DNA of 64,000 nucleotides, taken from the NCBI GenBank assembly GCA_963845755.1, contig CAWJTV010000020.1, positions 384,001-448,000 of the forward strand. The letters are read 5' to 3'. Within the stretch, counting starts at the first letter, position 1; each line of letters starts with the position of its first letter. The translations under genes were made by a program, and so were the position numbers. This stretch comes from an uncultured Planctomycetota bacterium (GTDB taxonomy: Bacteria; Planctomycetota; Planctomycetia; Isosphaerales; Isosphaeraceae). The notes below the pieces were generated by a model. It was not told the origin of the DNA. It saw only the letters and a program-made list of their open reading frames with translations, and ran no database searches. Below, piece by piece: positions 16,782-35,919 of this stretch.

Positions 16782-17026
16782 GGCGGCGCCTTCAATTCGT
16801 CCAGTTGATCCATGCTTTCGAGGAACGCGAAGACGCGACGGGCCTCGGCCTCGTCGATGCGCGAAAGCGCGAAGCCCACGTGGACCAGCACGTAATCGTC
16901 GGGGACGGCCTCGGGCACGTGCTCCAGGCACACGCGCCGGGAGACCCCGCCGAACTCGACTTTCCCCATCAGGATGTCGTGTTCGCGATAGGTCTCAACG
17001 ACCTTCCCCGGGATGGCAAGACACAT
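16778..17026 (-). CDS. hypC: Hydrogenase chaperone HypC
   Basis: MCLAIPG start, YVLVHVGFA. Confidence 0.96.
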
Positions 17027-19316
17027 CAACACCTCCCTCGGTCATTCGTACCTGGGCCACGGCGATGGCGAGCTGGCCCAGGCACAGTCCGCCGTCGTTC
17101 GGGGGCACGAGATGATGTCGGAAGACTCGGAACCCGTCGCCCGTCAGCCTGACCTCGACTTCGGCCGTCAGAAGGGCATTGAGGAACACACCGCCGCTGA
17201 GCACCACGGCATCGAGCCCGGTCTTCAACCGCAAACGCCCGCAAACCCGCGCCACGACTTCCACGATCGTCGAATGGAACCGTCGGGCGATCTTCGCCGG
17301 CACCACTCCGCGACGGGCCTCATCGGCGATCACGAGGACCATCGGCCGCATGTCGATCACGAGCGGATCCACGTTGCCGGTCTCCAGGATCTCGAACGGA
17401 TAGGCTCCCTCGGGCATGACCTCGGATGCGAGCCACTCCAGCTCCATGGCCGCCTGTCCCTCGAAGCTCACTCGTTGCCGGACACCGGCCAGTGCAGCCA
17501 CCGCATCGAAGAGCCGTCCCATGCTGGTGGTTCGCGGCGCATTGAACCGGCCCTCGATCATCCGCTCAATCAGGCGCCGCGATGGGAGTGGGATGATCTC
17601 TGATAAATTCGCAAGTGTCTTGCCTGCGTCGATCAGATGGGCCGCCGCCATCCGCCAGGGCTCCCGGATCGCCTGTTCGCCGCCGGGCATCCCAACCGGA
17701 CGAAGATGAGCCGATCTGCGATAGTCGCGATAATCCCCCGTCAGAAACTCACCGCCCCAGATGACTCCATCGGTCCCGAACCCGCTGCCGTCAAAGGTGA
17801 CGCCGATCACCGGCTCATCCAGGCCATGCTCGGCCATGCAACTGGCCATGTGCGCGTGATGGTGCTGAACGGCGATCTTCGAGGTCGCGCCCGAATGGTT
17901 CCGTGCATAATTCGTCGATTGATAATCGGCGTGCAAATCGTGGACCAACACCTCTGGCCGCAGGTCGAAAAGCTGTTCGTAATGGTCGATCGCTTCGCGG
18001 TAGGCGCGGTAGGCTTCGTAATGGTCGAGATCGCCGATATGGTGACTGAGGAACGCGTGATGTCCGCGTCCCATCGCGAACGTCGTCTTGAGTTGGCCGC
18101 CGAGGGCGAGGGTCGGCCGTCGGCACTCGACCGGCAGGGAGATCGATCGCGGTGCGTCGCCTCGCGAGCGGCGAATCGGCAACTCGGCCCCGGCGACGAC
18201 CCGCGTCACCGAGTCGTCGCAACGGAGATGAATCGGCCGATCGTGGGTGAGGAAGAAGTCGGCGATCCCTGCCAGACGCTCGCACGCATCCCGATCGTCG
18301 TAAGAGATGGGCTCGTCGGACTGATTCCCGCTCGTCATCACCAAGGGCGTACCGCCTAGCTCGCGCAGGAGCAGATGGTGCAAGGGCGTATAGGGGAGCA
18401 TCACGCCGAGCCAGGGATTGCGCGGTGCGATTCCCTCGGCCAGGCAAACGCTCGCCCGACGGCGCAGCAGGACGATGGGTCGGCGAGGCGCGAGGAGCAG
18501 GGTTTCCTCTTCGGGAGAGACCTCACAAAGCTCGCTGCACTGCGGCGATGTCCACGACCATGATCGCGAACGGCTTCTCGTCGCGATGCTTCCGCCGGCG
18601 GAGCTCGGCCGACAGCCTGCTCGTTCCCCGCGACACAGGCCAGGTGATAGCCGCCCAGTCCCTTGATCGCCCCGATCATCCCCTTCTGGAGGGCCGCGGT
18701 CGCATGCGCGACGGGATCGGCCGTCTCGATCGGTCGTCCCCGATGGTCGAGGTAGGTGAGCTGTGGCCCGCAAGCCGGACAGGCGGTGGGCTGGGCGTGG
18801 AATCGTCGGTTGGTCGGATCCTCGTACTCGGCCCGACAGGCGGGACACATGGCGAAGGCGGCCATGCTCGTCCGCTCGCGGTCGTACGGTGTCCCCGTGA
18901 CGATGGTGAGCCGAGGCCCGCAGTTGGTGCAGTTGAGGAACGGATACCGATATCGGCGGTCGTCGGGATCGAAAAGGTCCGCCAGGCAATCCGCGCAGGT
19001 CGCGATATCGGGCGAGATGAAAATCGGACCGGTCTCGTCGAGCACGCTGGACTCGATCCGGAACGAGAGGTCTCCCACGCGGCGGCTGGGACGACCAGTG
19101 CAGTTCGTCGATCCGGGCCAGGGGCGGCGGCTGGGTCGTCAGCTCGGCGAGGAATCGATCCAGGGAGCTCGGCTCCCCCTCCACCTCGATGAGGACGCCG
19201 CCGGTGCAGTTTCGGATACAGCCACGAAGGCCCAGCCGGGACGCGAGCCGGTAGATGTGGGGTCGAAATCCGACACCCTGGACGATCCCGCTGATGGTGA
19301 TCGCGCGACGGATCAT
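16995..19316 (-). CDS. hypF: Carbamoyltransferase HypF (frameshifts near 19080 and 18540-18610)
   Basis: VQGVGFRP acylphosphatase domain, zinc fingers (CADC, CTNCGPR, CPAC), [24 protein letters not shown]. Confidence 0.93.
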
Positions 19317-21657
19317 GCAGCGCGCTCCGGCCGATCGCTTCCTTGCGATGGAGCCACGGTCCGCGAATCGTGGTTGTGCTGGGGTTCTTCTTGTACTTTG
19401 GGGGGTGCCGGTGACCCTGTCAACCCACCGTCCTTCGACCAATGGTGAGACGACGGTATAGCGATGGAGCCGTCATGTCCGATTCCTCGTCGGGCCGATC
19501 GACCTCATGGCACAGCTCATGGTACAAGCAAAAGGGCGGAGGGGACTCGATTCGGATCGTGCAGCCGCAGGAAAGTGTAACCGATCCCGGCGGTTCCCAA
19601 CATCAAGGAGGGGTTTGGGCCGCCGGAGTAAAGGCCCGAGGGCCAGTCGCCCGAGTCTGAGTGGCGGGCGATCAAGGCGCGCGCCGCGGCGAGGGCGCCG
19701 TCGCGACACGATGAATCATCGAGCGTCTCGCCGGCGATGAATAGGATCTCGATCAATCCTCCCAGGCCGTGGCATGGGGTTGCGTCGCACCGCGGCGACG
19801 CGAGTTTCTGCTCGATCGCAACACGGGTCGTAGCGATCCCGACTCGGGCCATCGCGAGGTAGTCGTTCCTACACTCCGGGTCGAGCGTGGCGGCACGCAG
19901 CCGCGCCAGAGCAATCCCGGGTGCCCCATGGCACCAGGCCGTTTCGAAACGCAAGCGGCCCGAGCGACGTTTCCGATCGGCCCAGTTGCCATGTTCCGGT
20001 TCGAACAGCGTATCCTCGAATTCAAATGCTCGACGAGCGGCATCCCGGAAATCGACACGTCCGGTCGCCGCGTGGAGCTCGAGCAAGGCCAGGCCGATTC
20101 CGGCCGCGCCGTGGGAGATACCACTGTAGAGCAACTCGGCGGGCGCCGGATCGGTCGCGGAGTCTCCCTCCTGGGGCTGCAAGACCACTCGCCAGAGATC
20201 GGATCGGATTAGATCCTCACCGAGCGTCGTCGCGAGATCGCAGCAGCGCTCCAGGCCGGGCGACTTGCTCAATACGAGGATGCCGGGATCGCCCCGGCAT
20301 TCCCGGCGATCACGTTGACCATGTGGGGCAAAGAAACCGCCTCGACTACCCGATCCAGTATCGATTCGGCCTGGGCGAATCGTTCCTCGGACCGCGTCAG
20401 GTTCCCCATTCTCCAGGCCACATATGCCACTCCCAGATCCCCGCTGAAGAACGACAGTGGAGAGAGGGGCTGCTTCACGGGCCAACGCTCGAACTGACGA
20501 ATCGAGCGGGCCACGGCTCCGTCGGAAATGCGCCGAAACTCGTCGTCGCCGACCGCCGCATCGAGTTGCGCCAGGAATAGCGCCATGCCTGCGGAGCCCC
20601 CGTAGAGATCCGGTCCGAGGGCTGCCGATGCCGGCGTGATCATGCCATCGGTCTGGGCGACCTCGTCGGTTGATCGGCCGATCCAGTTGCAGAACCGGCC
20701 CTCCCGGTCCCAATATGCCGATCGACAAAGGCTCCGACCGATCTGGATGGCTGCTCCAAGAAGCGACGCTGACGCGGGGTGAGCCGGCCCGAACTTGAAG
20801 GTCTCAGGCGTTCTCTCGCGATCTGCGGTCTTCTCGTCGCTCGCCCAGGCAGACGACAACGCCCCAGGGTCGTAATCTTCCCTCGAACCCGGCCCCAGAT
20901 GAGGTCGGAGTGGATCGAGACTCTGGCGGATGAATGCCGCCGCCAAGGCGTCGGCACGACGACAGCGATCGACTTGCCCGCTCAGGAACGATTGCCATAG
21001 GGACTCCGCAACGAGCTGGCATCGATGTTCGCCGAAACTCAACGAACCGCTCGGGTCTTCCGCGAACCCCAATCCGTCGGCCAGCCGCTTGGTGAAGAGA
21101 GGTACCTCCGGGCGAAGTCCGGATGCCACGCTCGAGTAGATGCGGCCGATGACCGCCTCGACCCGGGCCCGGTATCGGCGGCGCAAATAGATCACGCCTG
21201 CATCGGCGCGGTGGTAAGCGTGCGGGTGTCTGAGCACCTTGACCTGGAATGGGAGCCGCGATTCGTTCAAGAGTGAGGTGGCCGTGGCGATGAACGAGAC
21301 CGCCGCGCTGGCTTTCAAGTGCCAATAATAGCGCACGAGGGAGTCCACCCCATCGCGGCTGCTATCGGAGTCATTCTCTTCATCCCCGATGGCGAGATAG
21401 TAGCCCGGGACCAGATTGCGCAGCTCCTTCGCGACTCGAACCGAACAGATTTCGCCAGGCCGGATCGAGCCGTTCTGAACGCGCACATCCGTCGCCTTTG
21501 CCCAGAACTCGACGCCCTCTCTTGCGACCACAATCCGTCCGTCCTCCGCGAGCCGGAGGACAGACCAACCCGACTCCCAGTGCCCTCGGCCGGCGTTGGC
21601 CGCCGAAAGGGCGGCGAGCAGGTCACGCTCGGCGAGCTCATCGCGCTGGGTTAGGGG

Positions 21658-23149
21658 CAATACCGTTGAAATAGGCGCAAGCCACAGCCTCCTGTTACTT
21701 TGGGTTTACTCACGACCCAAGCAACACGGAGGCCATGACTCGCATGCCGCACGGACATTGCACGCTGCCGCCCGATGCGTCGGGCCGGATCTTGGATCGC
21801 TTGGCGGGACTGGAACAGATTATCTCGCCCGAGGCCGTTCGCCAAGTCCTCGCGGCCACCGGTAAAACCAATCAACGACGTTGCACACTGACCCACGAGA
21901 TTGTTTGCTGGGTGGTCCTGGCCATGGGGCTGTTGACCGACTTGCCGATCCGCCAAGTCTTCAAGCATGCACGCCGGCTCCGAGTCGGCGAGGAGAGTCC
22001 CCATCGATCCAGCCTGTGTGTGGCCCGGCAACGCCTGGGCATCGCGCCGGTCCGCCACCTGTTCGAGCACGTCGTTCATCCTCTGGCCCGGCCCGATACG
22101 CCCGGAGCCTTCTACCGCGGGTTCCGCCTGGTCGGCATCGATGGGACCGTCTACGATGTCCCCGACTCGGAGGCCAACGCCGTGGCCTTCGGCGCCCCTC
22201 GGCCGGGCCGCGCGGCGACGGGGCGTTCCCCCAAGTCCGCAAGCTGAGCCTGGTCGAATTGGGGACCCACATCGAACTGGCCTTCGTGGTCCGGTCGATC
22301 GCCCACGGCGAACCGTCGATGGTCGGCGGCTTGCTCCGCCATCTGACTCCGGAGATGCTCCTGTTGGAGGATCGCGGGTTTTTCAGCTATGACCACTGGA
22401 AAACGGCGATGTTGCGGGGCGTCAAGCTGTTGGCACGCGTGAAAAGCGGCTTGATCCTCAAGTCGATCCAAAACCTGGCGGATGGCTCGTACCTGGCCAA
22501 GATTTATCGGGGTTGCTACGACCGTCAGATCGATCGGGATGGGATCGTCGTCCGGGTGATCCGCTATACACTGGACGACCCGCAACGAGTCGGACACGGT
22601 GAAACTCATGTGCTGATCACGAATCTCCTTGACGCGGAGCTTTATCCTGCTGAAGAATTGATCATTCTTTATCACGAGAGATGGGAACAGGAGTTGGTCT
22701 ATGACGAGCAAAAGACCCATCATGATCCGCGGCGGGCGACCAAGCCGGCACAGATGCGGAGCGAGACCCCGGCGGGGGTGATCCAGGAGATCTATGCGCT
22801 GTCGCTGGGTCATTTCGTGATCCGAGCCTTGATGGTTGCGGCCGCCGGGACCGTGGGGCTGGACCCGGATCGGCTGTCGTTTCTGGGGTGCTTCCAGATC
22901 CTCAAGTGCCGGTTGCCAGAATGCAACAGCTCGACCCCCGAGGCGTTCGAGGAGTGGTATCAGCGGATTATTGTGGGAGATGCAGGGGGAACGCACCGAT
23001 GACGAAGTGCGGAGGAACCGGATCAATCCGCGAGTGATCAAGCGTAAAGATGTCGAAATGGAAGAAGAAACGATCCCAAACATCGACACATTCCGCCCTT
23101 GAAGAAAACCTTTGCAGAGACAGTGGTTATGCTTCGTTAAACGGTATTG
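21658..23149 (+). mobile_element. IS4-family insertion sequence, 1492 bp
   Basis: Terminal IRs CAATACCGTTGAA and (reverse complement) CAATACCGTTTAA. 10-bp TSD GGGTTAGGGG at 21648-21657 and 23150-23159. Confidence 0.92.
21735..23140 (+). CDS. IS4-family DDE transposase (frameshifted)
   Basis: ARQRLG, GIDGT, LLEDRGF, Y..RWEQEL.YDEQK (YREK-like). Stop TAA at 23138-23140 inside the right IR. Confidence 0.88.
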
Positions 23150-23359
23150 GGGTTAGGGGAGGCGGGGAAGGTCGGAGATAGAGCCACTCGTAAAGGTGGT
23201 CCGCAAGCGCCAAGGTGAGGAGAGTCGGCCCGGCCGTGGAGGACGATTCGGAGAGGGCGTCGTCCGGGATCTCGCGCAGCCTGCCGAGCAGGGCATAGCG
23301 CGATGGTGACAGGATCTCCACCGCGTCGAGAATCGTCAGGAGATCATCGTGGACAGGAG

Positions 23360-24494
23360 TCATGACGCGACAGCTCCCGGCGGAATCCCGAAGAGTTGCA
23401 CCTGGCCAAGCTCGGGTTCAGCCAGTAGGTTCGCGCTAATCTGTAGCAGGAGCACCGGTTGACCGGTGAGACGGTCCGACTTGCCTGTAAGCTCGTAGGT
23501 CGAACTGGATGAGTCGGACTGCGGCGAACGCCACCGCCCGCCGCAAGAACCCGCCCTCCTCGGCAACCTCGAGACCGGCCGCCGCGCGAATAACCAGCCC
23601 ACAAGGCACGTGATGCGGCCCGCAACTCGTCCAGCGGGACCCGCGCCCGTGCGGTCATCTCCTCGGTGGTCAGCTCATCGGAGAGCGGCATCGAGGAGAC
23701 CCAGAGGACCAGGAAATCCTGCAAGGCACCCGCCAAATCCCATGCAGGATCGCCGATCCGGACCATCTCCCAATCGACGATCCACAGCTCGATGGCGTCA
23801 ACTTCCTCGTCCGCCCGCGGTGACCTGACCAGCACGTTGTCGAACCGGATGTCGCCATGGATCACCGTTTCGGGCCGCCACGACCGCGTCAATCGCTCGA
23901 GGTGTTCGACGAAACCCGCGTTGGCCTGAAGAATCCGCAGGATCTCGAGGTCAGCCCGGCTCAATCCGGCGCAATTCTCGGGCCCCGGTTGGTGAAAAAC
24001 TAGGATTGAGGGCAACGCCGGGGGAGCCAATCCAGACGTGGATCGCGTTCCGGATCCATCAGGCGAAAGTCGCGGTGGAGCGTACCCAGGGCTTGACCGA
24101 GTTCCCGAGCCGCCCGGAGGCTATGGCACCGGCCGCCGTGTTCCGCCGATTTGATCTGAAGCGTCGTGGCATCGGAGATCAACTCGAACACGAGAATGGC
24201 ATCTTCGACACAATTGTGCACAAGCCGCGGAAGAAAATGTGTCAAAGCGGTCGCGGCCGGCTCCTCCCGGCAGAACGTGTGGAATAACAATTCGCGACGA
24301 AGCGTCGCATGGCCGCCATGTGACAGGTGGTCCGGCTGTTTGATCAAGAAGCCCACGCCTTCGGGGCCGTCAACCCTCAGATTCCGATTTCGCCGCGAGA
24401 CGCTGCGGATGGTCAAGGTACCGTCGATGATCCATGCGACTTCGATCAGTCCCCGCTCGAGCAGGAAAGGAACGACACTGTCCACATCAAGCAT
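23360..24494 (-). CDS. APH/phosphotransferase-family kinase (LanK-like), frameshifted
   Basis: SRRNRN, FLIKQ, VIHGDIRFDNVLV, IVDWE, GDPAWDLA. Stop overlaps the next start (ATGA at 23360-23363). Confidence 0.8.
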
Positions 24495-24626
24495 CGCGGG
24501 ATGTCTCACGGATGCGGGATTTGCCCCATGACGGTCTCAGTTACAGGCGGGTGTAACCGCATCATTTCGGTCGACAAACAAGCACGACCTGGCGCGGCGG
24601 TGCGAGGGGTGATGCCGCCGGTTTAA

Positions 24627-25137
24627 TCAGTCGAGAAGGCTCCGGATGGGCGAGATCACCGAAGGTGATGGCCTAGGAGTTGGCGTCGGGGAAGAGCAGG
24701 CGGCTTCGCTCGGTACTGGAAAGAGTCCCGACGCGAATCCAAGGACGTCGGTGTTTAGCGCAGACTTGATCGAATTAGCCGACACGATAGAGCCTCTCAG
24801 GAATGACGCCTCGACCGACTGGACGAGCTTGAGGGGCCCATCCAAGTTGACGACGATCCTCGTCGGCTGGGTTTCATCCGACGGGTCGAACGGCTCGAGG
24901 TATAGGATCTTGCCCTTGGGCACCTCGACATAAGCCTGGAACCTCAGATCAAGGTAGATGCGAACCAAACCGTTCGGATCGGTGCGCACCGAGGAACCCG
25001 ACCACTACGACGGTTTCGCGTGGCTCGCCGGAATCCTGCAAGATCCTGGCAACTAGCGGATGTGGAGTGAGAACGACGCCCTGCGCGCCAGGGTAGGACG
25101 GTGTCCCCTTGCTGCTTGGATCCTGCTTATCAGCCAC
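24627..25137 (-). CDS. Putative large RiPP precursor-like protein (frameshift near 24985)
   Basis: RBS GAGGGA plus GTG. ORFs 24949..25137 and 24627..24989 join into about 170 aa: folded-looking N-terminus (VGFLG..VRIYLDL..YVEVP..IL) and a Ser/Thr/Pro-rich tail with SEAAC. First gene of the kinase/lyase-cyclase cluster. Confidence 0.55.
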
Positions 25138-25354
25138 AGCTCGTCCCTCACAACGTCCGAGGGGGATCTACTCGAGAAGCATGACTACCATAATCATGTT
25201 GCCTGGATCTTCGAGAATATACAGCGTCGTTAGGGATGTCGCAATAGAGTCGTTTCCCGATGGTTAATCTCGCCGCACCGATCGGTGTCATCTAAAAGAA
25301 TAATACAAATAGTTTCTATCATCTTCTTGTATCGCAGATTCCAAGGCGGGGCGA

Positions 25355-28300
25355 TCATGGAATCGTCCGCGCGACACGCATCCCGACATCGGGCTCGAAG
25401 GCTGCTGCCTCGGCCCAGGCTTGATTGGCAGATCGTAGTCCGAGCGAGGCCCTACGGAAGGAGGAACCGCGAAGGATGCGGTTTTCACGAAGGACCGTTT
25501 CGCCAAGAATCTCGTCCGCGATCATGCGGCCCGGAATGATGGCAGATTCCGATTGTCGATCGTGACACCACTCGATCACGTTGCCCAACAAATCGAACAG
25601 TCCCAAGTCGTTAGGAAGCAAACTGCCGCAGGGGCGAGTTCGGTGTCCACCCTTGACGCCCGCATTGTCCAGATACCACTCGTAATACGAGAGCAACCCG
25701 GGGGGACTGCCGAAGTAGCGGGACGTCACGGTTCCAGCCCGGCACGCATACTCCCACTCCGCTTGCGTCGGGAGGCGATACCCGCCAGCAGCCACGGCCT
25801 CGGCATCAACACGCATCCCTGCCGCATATTGGCCTTTATCATTCGGCAGGTAGCATGGTCGTAACTTTTCCTTCGCGCCGAGCCAGTTGCAATAGGCAGC
25901 GGCTTCGTACCAGGTCATGTTGGGTTGGGGGCAGTCCGGGGTGGGACTGTACTGTACCTCGTACCCGTGACGCCTCTTATGCGTCTCCATCGTGTATGTC
26001 TGGAAGCTCTCGACGTTCACCTCCCTGGAAGCGATGGCGAATCGCCGGGGGATGAGTCGTCGATGGAACGGTTTGAAATCGCCTCGAGTCGGTTCGGAGC
26101 GCGGCGAGCCCATGTCGAACAGAGCCGGGCCGTCGATGAGGACCATCGTCTGGCCCTCCCGGTTGACGTACCAGCGCCGGCGGATCGCTTCACCGGCCCG
26201 AGGTGGCTGTCCGGGCTCGAGATTGAGCCGATCGACGTACCCCCATCGTCTCAGGACCAGCTCTGCCGACGAGTGGACGCCTCCGTCAGGATCGTTTCGA
26301 TACAACTTGATCAGAGTCTGGATCAATCGAGATGGTTCTTCGGGGCCGAGGGCCGTCTTCGGATACGCCGCCAATGCCTGGATGAGTGCCCGTTGCCGCG
26401 AGATCAACGGGTCGAAGAGGTAAGAGTTCTTCTCCGAGACCGCTCCCACGTCCTCGCCAAGTCGCTCGAGCTCCACCGCGAGGATCGAGGGGTCTGCGCC
26501 ATAGGGTGCGAGCGCAGTGATGAAATTGCTTCGCACTTCCGGGTCCTTGCTGTGTTCGAGCAACTTCCAGACCTCCTTGTCGGAACCCAGGCGGACCAGG
26601 GCTACTGCCGCTCTTGCCCGGCGCGGATCGCCGAGTCGCGGCCATGCCGCCTTCACTCGGCTGGTGGCCCTCCTTTCCGGAAGCCGGAGACACGGCGGGG
26701 CTCATCCTGCCCATCGAAGCGGGCTGCGTAGACTCTAATTCCTTATGGAGGTCCAGGAGGACTGCCGCAGGATCTCTTTGGATCACGTTGAAAAACAGGG
26801 AGAACGCCTTAGGATCCGCATCGAGCATGACATCGAGCAGATCATTCGGTCTGCCGGCGGCGTAGCGGGACAGAAACTCGGTCGCCAGGTTATGTTCGCC
26901 CTCGGGACGGCCTTCATCGCGAAAGATCCGTTTCAAGGGATCCAAGAGGTAGAGATGGACGCTCGACATGGCATCGAGCCAGCCTTTCGCGTCGAACTGC
27001 CCCCGACCATCGCGCCCGCGACGATGTCGGCGACCTCCGACCAATGCCGATTCGTCGCGTCGTAATCTGCCAGGAGGCCCGCCAAGGGGAGGATCCGGTT
27101 GTCGCCGGGCCTGGCACCCCGCAAGTCACGCCACGACCGATCGAGCAGCATGCCCCGATAAGGTCCCAGGCAAACCCGGAGCACCGCCATCTCGCTCGAG
27201 TCGACGACCGTGTTGGGCGACTTGTCAGGGACCAGGTAGTTGTAGAGGTAATCGACCGGCTCGTCGTTGAACGCAAGGAGAGCGAGGCTGGCGTGAAGCT
27301 TCTGTTTGGTGCGATTCGGCGCCTCGAGGACGATGCGCCTGAGCTCCGGATAGGTCCACCGTCGGAACGCCCAGATCTCGTGAACGATGTCGGGCACTTC
27401 GGCGATCTCGGCCGTGAGGAGCTGTTGCATCAAACCAGCGGCATGGGTTTCCGCGTTGGCCTCGATGAATCGATGACGGATCATGAGTCCCGCGACGAGG
27501 AGGCCGGCGAGCAGGACTGCCCCACCGAGGCCACGGAGCCCGATAATCCAGTCCGCCCGCCTCATCATCCGGCCCTGAGACTCGGTCCACCCCTTTGGCT
27601 TCGTCAGCGACCGGATCGAGAGCCACTCCACGGCCGAGGGCAGGTAACGGTCCTCCGGCTTGGCGTTCCACATCGCCGCGCGCTCCGCCAGCCGGAGTTC
27701 AGCCCGACCTTGGCGGGTCTCGCGTTGCTTGCGCGTCAACCAGTCGCGCAAGGCATGGACCAGGTAATCGTGTGTGAGTTGGTAGCAGCGGCCAGCCGCC
27801 GCGTGAGACGGCATGTCCTCATCGATCGAGCCCTCGGGATCGACGGGTGTGATCAGCCGAAGCTCATTGTCAAGCATGCGGATCAGGTCGATGAAGTCCG
27901 CGCGGGCGATCTCCGTATCCCGATAGACCTCGCAGTTCCTCGATCGATCGCATCCGCCCTTTGATATCCGCGTTCGACTCGGGCAGGAGCGCCTTCAGGA
28001 CGGCCTGCGCCGCCTTCTGGTGATATCGGTGATTTGGGTTGGCTCGCGGCGAGCTGAAGGTCTCCTCCAGGAACGTGACTCCGACTCCGTCCATGCCGCC
28101 GACTTCCCGCAAGGTTGCAGGGACCCAAGCCTTCCTCTTGACCATCTCGGCGAACAGTGCCAGCCGAACCGGGACGACTCGACTATCCTGCGCCAGCCCG
28201 TCGACCGCCTGATCGAGGAAGGCGCGCTGCTCACGGGTAAGGTCGTCGGCCCGCGGCGGCAAGGCTTCGTAAGCGCGCCCGTAGGCCGCCAGGACCTTGC

Positions 28301-30300
28301 GGGCGTGCTTCGGATCGAAGAGGTCGACAGCCGCGACGTTACGATCGGGGACCAGGTCGATCTCGAGGTCTCTCATCAATCGGGTCGCGGCCATCCAGAA
28401 GTCGTCGCGCACGAGGCAGAGGGCCTGGAGATGTTCGCCGTCGCATTGCCGCAGCGCCGCGACCAACTCGGCTGCCGGCTCACCATGATGGGCGAAAAGC
28501 CACTGCTCGAACTGGTCGAGGACCAACAAGACCTTCCGGTCGTGCGTGATGCCCTGGCCGCGCCGGAGGCTCGCCAGCGATTCGACCAGCCCGACGTCGG
28601 CGGGCAGGCTGGGAAACCGCTTGCGGACGCCCCGGAGCAATCGCGCCTCCGTCTCGCCGACGGTCGACTCGACGTAGACCGTCGCGACGTGTTGGCCTAG
28701 CATGGGCAGCAGCCCCGCCTTGACGAGCGACGACTTGCCGCAGCCCGATGGCCCGTAGATGAGCCCGACTCGGAACGTCCTGTCCGGATCGGTTGCCTCA
28801 ATCCGCGTCTTCCAGAACCGCAGTCCTTCGGGGAGCCCTTCGCGATCGCGAGGGCCGGGGAGGAGCTCGAGGAAGAAGTCGGCATCGTTTTCGTCGAAGG
28901 ACCCTAGCCCCTTCGGGACGATCCGGATCGAAAGGAGGATCGAATCCGATGATGCCGGGATGAGGGTCGGCGAGCCTTCGGTCGTCGTCGGTGTCGAGAC
29001 GGTCTTTGCTGCTGGGCTCACGCCGTGCATCGACATCGTCCGCAACTTCGATTCGAGGAAGTGCCGCAAGTCCTCGGCGAGGTCCCTGGCGGTGGCATAT
29101 CGCTCGGAAGATCGTTTGGAAAGCGATTTCAGGCAGATCCGCTCGAGTTCCCGGGGAATCGTGTCGTCGATCTGCCGCGGCGGGCGGGGCTCGGCGTGGA
29201 TGATCTGCTCCATGACCTGGTCCTTCGACGAACCCCGAAACGGTCGGCGGCCGGTCAGCAGCTCGTAGAGGACGACGCCGAGGCTGAAGATGTCCGAGCG
29301 CCCGTTCGACGCGATGCGCTTCACCACGCGCCTGCTCCGGACTCATGTACGCCGCCGTGCCAAGGTGGCGCGATCCCTTTCCCAGGTTTTCCTCCTTCAA
29401 GGCCAGGCCGAAATCCGCCAGGTATGGTGCACCGTGGGCATCGAGCAGGATATTCGCGGGCTTGATGTCCCGGTGAAAGAGGTCATGAATATGAGTGTAG
29501 TGCAGTGCCTCGCAGAGGACCGCGATCATCTCGGCGGCCTCGGCAACGGCAAGCCGTCCGCGACGAAGCCGGGCGGCGAGGTCGCCCCCATCCATATACT
29601 TGGACACCACGTAACAGTGGCCGTCCTCGGTGCGGCCCACGTCGTAGACCGGCACGATGTTCGGATGGGAGAGCCGGGCGATGATCCGGGCTTCCTCGAG
29701 GTAGGACTCAACATCCAGGAACCAAGACGACTGTGAGTGTACCGGCTTCTTAATCGCGACGTCGCGGTCGAGCTCGGCGTCGTGCGCCAGGTAGACTCGC
29801 CCGAACCCGCCCTCGCCGAGGACCCGGATCACCCGGTATCGGCCGATGGAACTCGGACATGGGTCCGGCCCGGTCTTGTTCGCCGCTCGGTCACCGTCAT
29901 CTCGGGCCAGAACAGGCGGGTCCGACGAAGGATGTCCCGGAAGGACTCCCGGATCGGCCACGGGTTCCACTGGTGAGTGCTTCAGGAAGGCATACAGCCG
30001 TTTCTGCCGTTCGGTTCTTTCACGCAGCGCTTCCAACAATTCGGGGTCATTGACACCGAGAGACTCCGGGGAAGCGTCCTCGCCGCGACCATAGCGCTGT
30101 TCCCACTGCGCGAGGAAGTCGAGAAGACGGTCATCCCGGTCATCGCTGGGCCCCATCCATACTTCGCCACGCTCGATCTTGGGCTTGCGCAGGGACTCCC
30201 TTTGGGTGTCCTCGCTCGTGGACTGCGCGGGGGTCTCACCGGCCTGGGCGCCGGCCTCAATTCGGGGAGTGGGCTGTGAGTCCGCGTCGGGGTCGTTCAT
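25355..30300 (-). CDS. Ser/Thr kinase + STAND-like NTPase + TM + FGE-sulfatase domain protein, copy B (frameshifted)
   Basis: GEGGFG, HRDIKPANILL, DFGLA; GPSGCGKSS, LVLDQFEQ; RLPT.AEWEYACRAG, PNDLGLFDLLGNV.EWC. Confidence 0.85.
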
Positions 30301-30329
30301 CGGCCGCTCCGCTCGATCGTCCCGTAATG

Positions 30330-30592
30330 TCAGAAGGGTGTATTCGATCCATCCAGCCAGTGCGCGGCACGGTCGCTTCCAGGGCGACGACCAGCCGCAT
30401 CCAGACCTCGCTGACGACGCTTTCCAGGTCGTGACGGCCGTGCAGGCCGGAGAAATCGTCCTGATAGATCCGGGCGGCGATTCGCAACATGCGGTCGTGG
30501 GCGCGCTCCAGTAACTCGCACCGAGCCGTGATATCGCCACGGCGGAGCCGGTCGATCAGATTCTTGAGGTTAGCCGAAGTGTCGCCTACCAC
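30330..30592 (-). pseudogene. Internally deleted ECF sigma factor
   Basis: Matches 35949..36560 up to ALEATVP, then jumps to the last codons; about 350 nt missing. Confidence 0.82.
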
Positions 30593-30882: not shown

Positions 30883-33800
30883 TCAGGGCAGGGTCCTGAC
30901 GGGGCGGAACCCCAGGTCGGACCGGGATCCCTCCGGCACTAACCAGAATCGGCTCCAGGAGCGGAGCGAGTCGGGGTCGTTCCGGCAGGATCCGCCGCGA
31001 AGATAGCGATATTCGCCCTTCCTCACGGTCTCGTCTGCAATCACATCGCCTTTCCCGTCGGCTGGCCGGTCCTTGAGGTTCCACCCGGTATGACGATCGT
31101 GGCACCACTCCATCGCGTTGCCCAGCATGTCGAATAGCCCGAACTCGTTGGGAAGTCGCATGCCGCAGGAGTGGCGCGGAACCCCGAGGTGTAGTCGATC
31201 GCATAGACTGCGAGCAGGTCGAGGGACTGACCATAGTGGCGGCTGGTCACTGTCCCTGCCCGGGCGGCGTACTCCCATTCGGCCTCGGTCGGCAGGCGAT
31301 AGCCGCCCTGAGCAACCGCCCTGGAGTCGAACCCGCAGCCCCTCCGCGAACGTGCCATCGTTGGTCGCCAGGTAACATGGCGGTAGGCCCTCCCGCTCGC
31401 TGAGCCAGTTGCAGTAGGCCGCGGCGTCGAAATAGGTGATGTCGACCATCGGGCCATCCGGGTCTGGGTCGTAACGCTTGGTGTACTTGTGGGGGGCCTT
31501 TCGCACGTCTCTTGCGAAGGTCTGAAACTCCTCGATCGACACTTCCTTGGAGGCCATGGCCAATCGGTGCGAGATCCGTTGTCTGTGATATACCTCCTCT
31601 TCCTGACGGAGCGGGTCCATCGGCGGGGCGCCCATGTCGAAGTCGACCCGGCCATCGATGAGGATCATCGTCTGGCCAGCCCGATTGACATACCAGCGGC
31701 GGACGATCGGTTCTCCCGCCCGAGGCGCGCCCCCGGGCTCAAGCTTCAGTCGATTCTGGCGACCCCAACGCCTCAGGATCAATTCCGCCGCCGAGTGGAT
31801 GCCGGCGTCGGGGTCGTTGCGGTAGAGGTCCTCCAGGGTTTCGAGCAGCGCGTCGCGCTCGCGAGGATCGGAGTCGAGCGCCACCTTGGGGAATCCCGCG
31901 AGCGCCTGGATCAGCGCCCGGCTCTTCGATCTGGCCCGGTCGAAGAGGTAATCGTTTTTCCCTCCGCCCAGGCCGGGCCTGGCAAGTTCCATCGGGGCGT
32001 CGCGAACCAGCCGGGCGAACTCGCGAGCGAGGACGGCGGCCTCGACGCCATGCGTGCCCAGTGCGTGGATAAGAGCGCTGCGAGTGCGTGGGTCGGAACG
32101 ATACTCGAGCAAGTGCCACACCGCGCCGTCGGAGCCGAGGCGGATCAGAGCGACCGCCGCCCGCGCCGCTCGCGCGGCCCGCCGATCCCTGGACTCTTCC
32201 ACGTCCTCCGGGGTAGCGGGTGGCCTTTCCGACGTGCCTGGGATCCCCGTCGGCGAGCCGGGCGCCTCGACTCCCTTCGACAGCAAGACCGCCTCTTCCA
32301 GATCAGCGAGGACGGCCGCTCGGTTCTTCTCGGCGACGGGGAGGAGGATCGAGAACGACATGGGATCGGAGTCGAGTAGCAGATCCACCAGGCGGTCGGG
32401 GTCGTTGGCGGTGTACCGTGCCAGGACGTACGCCGCGAACTCGCGCTCCTCGATCGGACGATTGTGGTCCCGGTAGATTCGGGATAAGGGGTCGATGATC
32501 ACGGATTGAATACCTGTCAGCGCGTCCGTCCAGGTGTTCACAGAAATGAGTTTCGCCCCGACCATCGCGTCTGCGACCTTGTTCGCCAGCTCGGACCAGT
32601 TCGAATTCGTCCGGTCGTAACTCGCGAGTACGCCTGCCACGGGGAGCAGTCCATCATCACCAACCCTGGCCTCACGCAAGTCGCCCCATAGATTCTCGAT
32701 CAGTTCGCCCTGATACGGCCTGAGGCTCTCCCGAAGTATGGGCATCTCCCCCGAAATGCCTTCGAGCAGGCGCCGGTGCAGGTAGTCGACCTGCCCACGG
32801 TCGTCCGGCAGCCGGGCGAGGCTGTACCAGAGTCGAGAACGGGTGTCGTCTCCGGACCGGCTCGCCAGGTGCTGGAGGCGACGGGCATACATCCAGCGGG
32901 GATAGGTTGCGAGTTGACCCAGGACCTCGGGGATCTTCTCAACTTTCGAGTTCGGTAGCGACTCCAGCAATACCTCGGTCCGCGAGTAGACGCTGTAGGC
33001 CTCGGTTATCATCGTCACGAGAGCAATGAAGATGACGAAGCCGAACAGTCTCGTCCCATGGACCCACCGTCCGCGCGTCATCATCCGCCGCTGAGGCTCG
33101 GTCCACCCCTTGGGTTTCGTCAACAGCCGAATCGATAGCCATTCGCCCGTTGATGGAAGGTGACGATCCTCCGGCTTGGAGTTCCATGCGGCTGCGCGCT
33201 CCGCCAGCAAGAACTCGACTCGACCGCGGCGAGTGTCACGCTGTTTGCGCGTCAACCACTCGCGAAGGGCGTGGACCAGGTAGTCGTGGGTCAGTTGGTA
33301 GTAGAGTCCGCCGACCGGGAGAGCCGGTGCGTCCTCATCGATCGAACCCTCCGGGTCAACCGGCGTGATCAGGCGAAGATCCGTATCGAGGATGCGGATC
33401 ACGTCGGCGAACTCCGTCGGTCTCTCGGCATAACCCGAGAACTGTCGAAGCTCCTCCACCGACCTCATCCGCCCCTTGATGTCGGCATTCGCCTCGGGCA
33501 GGAGCGCCTTCAACACGGCCTGTGCGGCTCTCTGATGGTAATGGTGGTTCGGATTGGACCGGGGCGAGCTGAAGGTGTCCTCGAGGAACGTGACCCCGAC
33601 TCCATCCATGCCGCCGACGTCGCGCAAGGTCGCGGTTGTCCAGGGCTTCTGCTTGACCATCTCGGCGAGGAGAGCCAGCCGAACCGGGACGACGCGACCG
33701 TCCTGCGCCAGGCCGTCGACCGCCTGGTCGAGGAATGCGCCATGTTCCCTCGTGAGGTCTTCGGTCCTCCGCGGCAGGGCCTCGTATGCGCGCGCCGAAC

Positions 33801-35919
33801 GCCGCCAGGACCTTGCGGGCGTGCTTCGGATCGAAGAGGTTGACAGCCGCCACGTTCCGGTCGGGCACCAGGTCGATCTCCAGGTCACGCATGAACCGGG
33901 TTGCCGCCATCCAGAAATCGTCCCGCACCAGGCAGATGGCCTGGAGGTGCTCGCCGTCACATTGCCGCAGCGCCGCCACCAGGTCGGTCGACGGCTCGCT
34001 CCGATGGGCGAACAGCCACTGCTCGAACTGGTCCAGGACCACGAGGACCTTCCGGTTCTGGGTTAGTGCCTGGTTGCGCCGCAGGGTCGTCAGGGACGCG
34101 GTCAGGCCGGCGTCGACGGGCAAGCCGGGGAACCCCTTGCGGACGCCGCGGAGCACGCGCGCCTCGGTCTCGGCGACCGTCGCCTCGACGTAGACCGGTG
34201 CCACGTGCTGGCCCAGCAGGGGCAGCAAGCCTGCCTTGACGAGCGACGACTTGCCGCAGCCCGACGGCCCGTAAATGAGCCCGACGCGGAACGTCCTGTC
34301 CGGGTCGGTCGCCTCGACCCGCGTCTTCCAGAATCGCAGCCCGTCCGGGAGTCCTCCGCGATCGCGAGGGCCAGGGAGTAGGTCGAGGAAGAAGTCGGCA
34401 TCGTTCTCGTCGAAAGAACTCAGTCCCTTCGGGACGATCCGGATCGCACGGAAGACGGAGTCCGACGATCCGGGGATCGGGGGGGGCGTGGGCTCGATGG
34501 ATGTTGCCATGGGGACTGCGTTGGCTTCCGGGCTCACGCCCTCCGTCGACCTCGCCCACAACACCGACTCGAGGAAGTGCCGCAGGTCCTCGGCCAGGTC
34601 CCGGGCGGTGGCGTACCGCTCGGCGGCCCGTTTCGAAAGCGCTTTCAGGCAGATCCGCTCGAGCTCCCGTGGGATCGAATCGTCGATCTGCCGCAGGGGA
34701 CGGGGCTCGGCACGGATGATCTGTTCCATGACCTGGTCTTTCGACGAACCCCGGAAGGGACGGCGGCCCGTCAGCAGTTCGTAGAGGACCAGGCCGAGGC
34801 TGAAGATGTCCGAACGGCCGTTCGACGCGATGCCCCTCGCCCCGCGCCTGCTCCGGACTCATGTACGCCGCCGTGCCGACGAGGCGCGGCACCCTTGCCG
34901 AGGTCCTCATCCCTCAGGGCCAGGCCGAAATCGGCGAGCGACGGGACGCCTGCCGCGTCGAGCAGGATGTTCGCGGGCTTGATGTCGCGGTGGAACAGGT
35001 CGTGAGTGTGCGTGTAATGCAGCGCATCGCAGAGGACCGCGATCAGCCCGGCCGATTCGGCGAACGCCGGCCGCCCCCGACGTAGCCTGTCGGACAGGTC
35101 GCCTCCATCCATATATTTAGACACAACATAACAGCGGTCGTCCTCGGTGCGACCGACGTCGTAGACCGGCACGATGTTCGGATGGCAGAGCCGGGCGATG
35201 ATCCGGGCTTCGGCGAGGTAAGTCTCGACATCCAGGAACCGGGACGCCTGGGCATGGATGGGCATCTTGATGGCGACGTCACGGTCGAGCTCGGCGTCAT
35301 GGGCCAGGTAGACCCGCCCGAACCCGCCCTCGCCGAGGACCCGGATCACCCGGTATCGGCCGATGCTGGCCGGTGATGGCTCCGATCCGGCCTTGACCTT
35401 CAATCCGACACCGGTATTTCGGGCCAAGGCCGCCGGGCCCAACACAGGTGCTGCCCGATGGACTCCCGACTCCGCCATCGTGTCCGTGGGCGTGTGCTTC
35501 AGGAAGGCATACAACCGCCGTAGCCGTTCGATTCTTTCAAGCAGCACTTCCCTCAGTACCGAGTCGTTGACACCGAGCGACTCCGGAGAAGCATCGTCGC
35601 CGCGATGATAGCGCTCTTCCCACCTCGCGAGGAGGTCGAGGAGACGGTCCTCCTCATCGTCGCCGGGTCCCACCTTGGCCTCTCCGACTTCGATCCGGGC
35701 GCCGAGTTCAGACTCGGTGGCAGGTTCCGAGCCGATTGGGGTGTCAACCACGGTGGCCGGCAGGCGGTCGCCGACCGGCCGGATGTCGGAATCGGGCTCG
35801 GTGACAACCTGCGTCTCGGGTTTGGTGTCAACGTCAGAGGGCCGCGCGCGGTTTTTACCGGTCGAAGAGTCGGTGTGGATTCGGGGAGTGGGCTGGAAGT
35901 CCGCGTCGGGATCGTTCAT
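30883..35919 (-). CDS. Ser/Thr kinase + STAND-like NTPase + TM + FGE-sulfatase domain protein, copy A (frameshifted)
   Basis: Same motifs and order as copy B. Both start MNDPDAD.QPTPRI. Confidence 0.85.

Follow-up and report, generated by a model that had tools for sequence, protein, structure and literature searches.

A probable class V-type lanthipeptide gene cluster with a HopA1-LanC fusion gene split by an IS4-family element in an uncultured planctomycete

Three co-oriented genes for a putative lanthipeptide pathway

Which kind of modification is encoded by a phosphotransferase gene that overlaps a gene for a HopA1-like lyase fused to a LanC-type cyclase, and is the protein encoded upstream of both the substrate? 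This question is raised by positions 19517 to 25137 of a stretch of 64,000 nucleotides (called the window in the following; positions 384,001 to 448,000 of contig CAWJTV010000020.1, assembly GCA_963845755.1) from an uncultured member of the Isosphaeraceae (Planctomycetota), for which an initial annotation had proposed class V-type dehydration coupled to a LanC cyclase, an architecture that was thought to lie outside the standard classes. The analysis presented here indicates that the three genes, called lanA, lanK and lanYC, very probably constitute a class V-type (class Vb-like) lanthipeptide cluster that is broken by an insertion sequence (IS) and whose frame shifts are probably errors of the assembly.

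As had been annotated, the genes are co-oriented: all three lie on the minus strand and follow each other from high to low coordinates in the order lanA (24627..25137), lanK (23360..24494) and lanYC (19517-23363, about 780 codons), the last two sharing an ATGA overlap at 23363-23360 in which the stop codon of lanK meets the ATG of lanYC. The genes are regarded as translationally coupled. The lanA gene extends over two frames and encodes a precursor protein with an N-terminal leader domain, predicted to be folded, and a short tail rich in Ser, Thr and Pro that contains one Cys; the lanK gene, present in four frame pieces, encodes an APH-type Ser/Thr kinase similar to the LanK proteins of class V; and the lanYC gene is split by the IS, its 5' piece, codons 1 to about 68, being located at 23160..23363 on the minus strand, where the open reading frame (ORF) 23127-23363 aligns with residues 1-64 of the related proteins P0002 and P0003. 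The host genome contains one copy of each of the three genes.

Catalytic features of the kinase, the lyase and the cyclase

In the case of lanK, the ORF 23344-24030 matches the APH family PF01636 (E = 6.2e-11), and its translation contains the motifs VIHGDIRFDNVLV (HGDIRFDN) and IVDWEMV, in agreement with the phosphotransferase carrying HGD..DN and DWE motifs that had been annotated. In an alignment of 42 kinases the residues K52, H211, D213, N218 and D236-W-E238 are invariant. The intact kinase from the related locus L003 has as its top NCBIfam match the lexapeptide kinase model LxmK (NF038156, 1.7e-19), although its score of 70 bits stays below the equivalog cut-off of 315 bits.

In the case of lanYC, the ORF 20269-21660 matches the HopA1 family PF17914 (4.5e-37, residues 82-255), which places the putative LanY-type phosphoSer/Thr lyase domain at 20896..21417, and in addition the N-terminal part of LANC_like PF05147 (3.5e-9), whereas the ORF 19517-20728 matches positions 138-350 of the latter model at 2.5e-34. 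The LanC-type zinc cyclase domain, including the stop codon, occupies 19517..20619 on the same minus strand and contains a frame change near 20284. The two profile matches that the initial annotation had called for were hereby obtained. Residues 73-326 of P0002 match chain 9dk1_B, which is LxmY of the lexapeptide dehydratase complex LxmKY, at 5.7e-8. For the homologous lyase CaoY, Liang et al. (2022, PMC9486802) describe Arg187 and Lys219 as needed for elimination and Arg229 as contributing, and note Tyr236 as conserved. The residues R177, K208, R218 and Y225 of P0002 are spaced by 31, 10 and 7 residues and those of CaoY by 32, 10 and 7, a correspondence that is drawn by spacing only and not from an alignment with the CaoY sequence. 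Three of these, R177, K208 and R218, are invariant in an alignment of 15 sequences, in which the consensus at the fourth position is Y225, and the ORF of the window contains the full set.

In the cyclase part, the motifs GISHGAAGIG, AWCHGAPG and PCHGLGG are aligned to the NisC stretches GLAHGLAGVG, AWCYGGPG and CHGYSG, and the columns of SHG, WCHG and CHG, annotated as intact at the outset, are invariant or nearly so in the same 15-sequence alignment. We take the NisC stretches to hold the catalytic His and the Cys/Cys-His zinc ligands, so that the dedicated zinc LanC with His and Cys/Cys-His ligands that characterizes class Vb is found here. Together, an APH kinase with its catalytic residues and a PF17914 lyase with the Arg/Lys/Arg/Tyr set, encoded by adjacent genes, correspond to the dehydratase pair of class V.

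Could the genes instead represent a synthetase of class IV (LanL) or of class II (LanM) in split form, and no relative of class V? The cyclase part might suggest so: the closest solved cyclase is the LanM-type LicM2 (2.8e-15, compared to 3.5e-6 for NisC), and the best NCBIfam matches of the fusion protein are LanM (2e-73), LanL (3e-31) and LanKC (1.5e-21). However, all of these matches fall below their cut-offs and concern the C-terminal cyclase region only, LanM TIGR03897 being matched at profile positions 536-932 with 247.6 bits against a cut-off of 304 bits, and LanL NF038150 in the cyclase part with 108.6 bits against 650 bits. A LanL would unite an OspF-type lyase, a Pkinase and a LanC in one polypeptide, whereas here the kinase is a separate protein of the APH type (PF01636), not a Pkinase, with LxmK as its best NCBIfam match; a LanM would join an N-terminal LanM dehydratase to a C-terminal LanC-like part, whereas no LanM dehydratase domain is present and the lyase is a PF17914 protein that matches LxmY of LxmKY. 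A split synthetase of class II or IV is therefore highly improbable, and the class V-type reading is retained.

The HopA1-LanC fusion is a conserved protein family

A search with the ORF of the window returned 207 matching proteins, and both PF17914 and PF05147 were found in 104 of the 120 relatives listed, in which full-length fusion proteins are mostly 700-811 amino acids long and several are named from Isosphaerales or Gemmataceae. When contigs from one genome per species were searched, tblastn upheld 479 out of 600 pattern hits, and 78 loci were kept that belong to at least ten phyla, including Planctomycetota, Myxococcota, Acidobacteriota, Gemmatimonadota, Chloroflexota, Pseudomonadota (Undibacterium, Mesorhizobium), Bacteroidota, Actinomycetota, Verrucomicrobiota and Cyanobacteria, as well as one metagenome-assembled genome (MAG) of the Nitrososphaeraceae. 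Fusion-like genes were present at 64 of the 78 loci, and 55 of these offered more than 2.5 kb of upstream sequence. An APH-type kinase gene is located directly upstream of the fusion gene in all 55 testable loci, and the conserved synteny that had been expected in other genomes is thereby evident. An ORF for the leader domain was found upstream in 37 of the 55 and downstream in one more (L030); with a second profile, made from 39 sequences, none was detected in 17 of the 18 fusion loci lacking such an ORF upstream, the eighteenth being L030 with its downstream ORF. From these data it is clear that the HopA1-LanC fusion is a real, conserved protein family.

Beyond the three genes no conserved neighbours were detected, as clustering of the 2,960 ORFs of the 78 loci gave no cluster present in more than 10 loci, and matches to C39-ABC, S8, HlyD and LanB occurred only at loci that match the LanC part alone. 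Within the family of the host the cluster is patchy: of 18 other genomes searched, 3 contain it, and it was found in none of 12 genomes that belong to the same class but to other families. L002, the closest relative, has at 17300-21500 a second and diverged whole cassette of precursor, kinase and fusion genes, about 5 kb downstream of the first. The Nitrososphaeraceae locus L038, on a contig of 5151 bases, shows a fused HopA1-LanC gene with an APH kinase gene upstream; the contig is assigned to an archaeon, but it is too short for its binning to be judged.

The upstream genes encode a family of precursor-like proteins

Homologues of lanA are located directly upstream of the kinase gene in related loci and share an N-terminal region of about 115 residues with the approximate pattern ..LxGFLGxS..RLYLDxxLxxYVEIP...SPLGG.VWV...A.FLxGxI... 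In the window, the gene is represented by the ORFs 24949-25137 and 24627-24989, and tblastn with intact homologues maps it to 25149-24985 and 24980-24717 in two frames; the leader-domain profile matches it in two pieces, and the helix motif is retained as SFLRGSI. In contrast to the shared N-terminal region, the tails of the precursors are mutually dissimilar, rich in Cys, Ser, Thr and Pro, and often repetitive. The Mesorhizobium precursor (L013) ends in GCYTLAGTLCLTCTPTFICPQ, that of L005 contains three FxNPPPCxxTxPHHTC units, and those of L010, L035, L016 and L008 contain dozens of CPSQLTFCQSQ or GCPNTSTCPPQT units. Very long precursor ORFs with dozens of near-identical units of Cys, Thr, Ser and Pro in their tails were recorded at L010:7573-8766, L035:6350-8740, L043:6011-8812, L008:4541-6859 and L016:7189-8754, and two precursor genes are arranged in tandem at L024, L028 and L045.

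When the leader-domain profile was searched against 1.84 billion representative proteins, the number of clusters matched was 3,605 at E<=1e-3, falling to 2,495 at E<=1e-10 and to 366 at E<=1e-30. Among the 150 best matches listed, the domain is N-terminal in nearly all and the proteins have 124-1,233 residues, P0226 reaching the upper value. After residue 140, two or more Cys residues are present in 138 of these 150 proteins, one in five and none in seven, and in the 142 proteins with tails of at least 15 residues the median Cys content rises from 0.7% in the first 140 residues to 11.6% in the tail. Pfam models gave no match for eight precursor sequences and NCBIfam models none for seven. AlphaFold2, run on the 39-sequence alignment, yielded six strands and, after them, a helix, the pLDDT being about 97 for residues 40-100, and the leader domain is accordingly predicted to be a small beta-barrel plus a helix. 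Foldseek found no match for it in the PDB at E<=0.001, and the highest Z that VIA-align returned from a comparison with 48,161 chains was 3.8, for Sm/SH3-like small barrels, a similarity at the level of a common arrangement. A conserved N-terminal domain followed by hypervariable, Cys-rich tails is the signature of the core region in peptides that are made by the ribosome and modified after translation (RiPPs), and the composition of these proteins supports the view that the upstream family behaves as substrate.

The complex of the Mesorhizobium LanK with the N-terminal region of LanA was predicted from our own alignments. It reached an ipSAE of 0.78 whereas the best control reached 0.00; the mark applied is attained by 116 of 157 solved complexes and by 2 of 215 mismatched pairs, counts that are approximate here since own alignments were used. 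Three runs share at least 46% of the contacts, and the pLDDT of the partner is at least 61. In the predicted interface, residues 107-130 of LanA, that is, the 'YLxGxI' helix following the barrel, contact the C-terminal helical lobe of the kinase (264-290 and 333-365). The modeled complex lends support to a putative binding of the leader by LanK. Tentatively, the family may be regarded as undescribed, very large 'lanthi-protein' precursors of up to 1,233 residues, in which a folded beta-barrel leader and a LanK-docking helix would be followed by repeatable cores rich in Cys, Ser, Thr and Pro.

An IS4-family element splits lanYC

The lanYC gene is interrupted by an IS of 1492 bp at 21658..23149 on the plus strand, the transposase of which (21735-23002) lies in two frames and matches Nterm_IS4 PF13006 (1.4e-18) and DDE_Tnp_1 PF01609 (6.5e-7). 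The element is bordered by inverted repeats of 13 nucleotides with one mismatch (CAATACCGTTGAA and TTAAACGGTATTG) and by a directly repeated target-site duplication of 10 bp, GGGTTAGGGG, without strand assignment, whose left copy is at 21648..21657 and whose right copy is at 23150-23159. A DDE transposase with an IS4 N-terminal domain, terminal inverted repeats and a 10-bp target duplication identify it as a member of the IS4 family. It is not intergenic but lies within lanYC after about codon 71. Removal of the IS and of one copy of the repeat lets the lanYC frame continue over about 781 codons, compared to 774-792 amino acids in intact relatives, and the HopA1-LanC protein of about 780 amino acids that had been reconstructed in the initial annotation was thus recovered.

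The host genome contains 17 full-length copies of the IS with 98-100% identity, the left junction of the IS with the HopA1 gene is present on a short-read contig of 1580 nucleotides from a soil metagenome run, and in the related genome G001 of the same genus the insertion site is uninterrupted, with one high-scoring segment pair spanning residues 1-170. For these three reasons the insertion is considered to be real. An empty site was not seen among the short-read contigs from five soil-metagenome runs of two studies, in which at most 0.24 of the sampled words were present, mostly from the multi-copy IS; these contigs cover neither 19400-21566 nor 24719-25300 and are uninformative on those parts and on habitat. 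The 17 near-identical copies in a genome of 14.3 Mb point to a recent burst of transposition. As lanYC is cut by a recently active IS4-family element, which should stop the elimination and cyclisation steps, the pathway is most likely off in the host genome.

Frame changes in the cluster are probably assembly errors

Besides the IS, five one-base frame changes were mapped with the help of intact homologues: the kinase gene has three of them (near 24016, 23588 and 23502), and the precursor gene (near 24983) and the LanC part (near 20284) have one each. Five frame changes within about 4.1 kb in addition to an IS might suggest that the whole cluster is a decayed relic, in which the frame changes are true mutations that arose with or after the IS and none of the three genes is functional, and the single Cys in the tail of lanA and the presence of only one copy of each gene in the genome would fit this view. 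However, several results speak against it. Over 23523-23674, one short-read contig differs from the window only by a missing base at 23589, which is a frameshift site, and a second contig, identical over 24019-24156, ends at the C5 run at 24019, another such site, so that two of the five sites lack the indel or differ in short reads. Shifts of the same type occur in unrelated genes of the window: the transposase of the IS spans two frames, short-read contigs showing an additional C after 22191, and hypF as well as a gene for a Ser/Thr kinase-STAND protein are also shifted. The length of IS copies with 98-99% identity ranges between 1485 and 1492 bp. In the relatives G001 and G008, assembled into few contigs with low marker completeness, lanYC is equally fragmented, whereas the gene is whole in the short-read genome G015 (99% complete, 570 contigs). 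Apart from the shifts, neither a premature stop nor a deletion was seen. On the strength of the short-read differences, the shifted unrelated genes, the length variation of the IS and the pattern among relatives, the five frame changes are probably errors of a long-read assembly rather than signs of decay, and a relic in the full sense is unlikely.

The two shifted genes next to the cluster were observed as follows. The hypF gene (16995-19442, minus strand, with 18401-19078) lies in two frames, the acylphosphatase, Sua5 and Kae1-like domains being encoded in one ORF and two zinc fingers in another, and its shift is probably the same indel noise as that in the cluster. At 26933-30540, also on the minus strand, a Ser/Thr kinase is fused to an nSTAND1 NTPase, and the gene is split inside the kinase domain into at least two frames.

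A proposed pathway and the points that weigh against it

From the protein families, a sequence of steps can be proposed for an intact version of the cluster, the host of which would be a soil planctomycete. The precursor LanA would consist of a folded leader of about 115 residues and a conserved helix ('FLxGxI') preceding the tail. The APH-type LanK would dock on the leader helix and phosphorylate Ser and Thr residues of the C-terminal tail, the HopA1-like domain of LanYC would remove the phosphate to give dehydroalanine or dehydrobutyrine, and the fused zinc LanC domain would add Cys thiols to form (methyl)lanthionine rings. Removal of the leader and export would require unlinked genes; no gene for a protease or transporter, nor any other, is conserved next to the cassette. 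This reading of the functions is supported by the synteny and the catalytic residues, both of which are conserved, and by the character of the protein family encoded upstream.

Several points weigh against this proposal. No leader-domain ORF is present within 10 kb in 17 of the 55 fusion loci, so that the large-leader protein is not an obligate partner, and the co-occurrence with the upstream protein that the initial annotation had proposed to test holds for the majority of loci but not for all. Among the 78 loci, no conserved protease, exporter or immunity gene was found beside the cassette. In the literature searched no product is reported for any fused LanY-LanC system, and the chemistry is deduced. 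The short-read contigs used above have a depth of 2-4, stem from soil metagenomes and could belong to a related strain. The solved LxmKY structures (9dk1-3) may have helped the prediction of the LanK-LanA complex. Finally, the lanA tail of the window contains a single Cys amid numerous Ser, Thr and Pro residues, and the precursors of the closest relatives, the two copies in L002, have none and one; judged by these tails, at most one ring and several dehydro residues could be formed in this clade, unless indel errors hide the true tail.

Some of these points might favour a different role, in which the trio would modify or repair cellular proteins, in the way that eukaryotic LanCL proteins act on dehydroamino acids, and the upstream protein would be an adaptor and not a substrate. 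The lack of a conserved protease, exporter or immunity gene would agree with such a role, as would a folded domain in the upstream protein, which is unusual for a leader, and tails with no Cys (7 of 150) or one Cys (5 of 150). However, the conserved N-terminal domain contrasts with hypervariable tails in which Cys, Ser, Thr and Pro abound and tandem repeats are frequent, as is typical of RiPP cores; moreover, the genes are translationally coupled, precursor genes occur as tandem pairs (L024, L028, L045), and homologous unfused enzymes produce lanthipeptides. A modification or repair system is therefore quite improbable, and the assignment as a class V-type lanthipeptide cluster is preferred.

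Relation to known lanthipeptide systems

Systems that combine LanK and LanY with a dedicated LanC are known as class Vb, whose parent member is mSmoA with the cyclase SmoC, according to papers (PMC11186320, PMC12291118, PMC12328550) that cite the original description (Pei et al., JACS 2022, doi 10.1021/jacs.2c06808). The comparison with class Vb rests on these citing papers. Like SmoK, SmoY and SmoC, as far as they are described there, the enzymes of the window comprise a kinase of the APH type as a free protein, a HopA1-type lyase and a zinc cyclase of the LanC type, and like that class the cluster has no LanX or LanD beside it, none being found with Pfam among 12 neighbouring ORFs or among the conserved neighbours of the 78 loci. 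In these sources SmoC is described as stand-alone, whereas in the window LanC shares a single chain of about 780 amino acids with the lyase; a further difference is the precursor with its folded leader of about 115 residues, in a planctomycete host with relatives in many phyla. Massatide, considered as a class Vb product, was rejected as such, as it is an AviMeCys peptide.

With class Va (LxmK/LxmY/LxmX, CaoK/CaoY/CaoX and RosK/Y/X/D) the cluster shares homologous LanK and LanY proteins and the Arg/Lys/Arg/Tyr set of the lyase, and the solved LxmKY complex is the nearest structure for a lyase part of the window type. However, the LanX (a kinase-fold cyclase) and the LanD (a flavin-dependent Cys decarboxylase) of class Va are missing, a LanC domain is present instead, and there is no evident C-terminal Cys motif of the AviMeCys type.

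The fusion itself has been noticed before. Eyles et al. (2021, PMC8153245) report 1,340 HopA1-domain proteins, 96% of them encoded beside a phosphotransferase, and suggest that fusions of HopA1 with LanC could represent a lanthionine synthetase that is new and uncharacterised; the biosynthetic gene clusters treated there contain the same fusion next to a phosphotransferase. They differ in that short peptides were sought with RiPPER (Families 11/20 and 22) in that part of the work, and four leader motifs of the present family were not found in its RiPPER peptide table (supplement 2). In the literature searched, this was the only mention of a HopA1-LanC fusion found, and by title and abstract no fused system or large leader was found in HopA1 RiPP literature from 2022 on. 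The product of the fused enzyme and the folded-leader precursor family are therefore considered uncharacterised in the literature searched, although the logos of that study may show related peptides. Of the two parts of the initial proposal, class V-type dehydration coupled to a LanC cyclase is supported, whereas the idea of an architecture outside the known classes has to be given up: dehydration by kinase and lyase followed by LanC cyclisation corresponds to class Vb, the fusion was flagged in 2021, and the cluster opens no new class.

Long conserved N-terminal leaders combined with hypervariable cores, sometimes in several precursors, are also characteristic of the Nif11-type and nitrile-hydratase-like leaders of class II lanthipeptides and proteusins. 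The family of the window differs from these by the absence of a Pfam or NCBIfam match, by a predicted barrel and helix without a clear structural relative, and by a total length that reaches 600-1,233 residues in some proteins.

It is mainly the protein-sized precursor family, and not the hybrid architecture, that is of interest. Many phyla commonly contain the fusion, yet it is without a known product in the literature searched, and its usual substrate appears to be protein-sized with a folded leader, so that tools for mining short peptides would miss such precursors. The enzymes may install many thioether rings in long repetitive tails; if LanK and LanYC indeed act iteratively, these precursors would count among the largest ribosomal substrates that any lanthionine synthetase acts on and would represent a product class widespread in soil phyla, including planctomycetes, acidobacteria, Chloroflexia and Gemmatimonadota. 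The copy in the window is a poor object for such studies because it is interrupted by an IS and has a tail with a single Cys.

Neighbouring genes

Among 12 neighbouring ORFs scanned with Pfam, none encodes a protease, a transporter or a flavoprotein, which agrees with the earlier statement that no protease, transporter or flavin decarboxylase is adjacent. A promoter-like site upstream of lanA, for which the evidence is weak, was located at 25216..25244 on the minus strand (TTGCGA-17-TATATT, 9/12 matches); 3 such sites were found compared to 1.2 expected in shuffles. The scanned ORFs comprise hyp genes on one side of the cluster and an FGE-sulfatase protein together with the Ser/Thr-kinase/STAND NTPase on the other. 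Two FGE-sulfatase (SUMF1-like) proteins are encoded on the minus strand, at 25355-26656 and at 30883-33960, the former of which likewise flanks the cluster on its upstream side in L002, the closest relative. On the other side, hypF adjoins intact-looking hypC, hypD and hypE genes and a gene for the small subunit of a NiFe hydrogenase.

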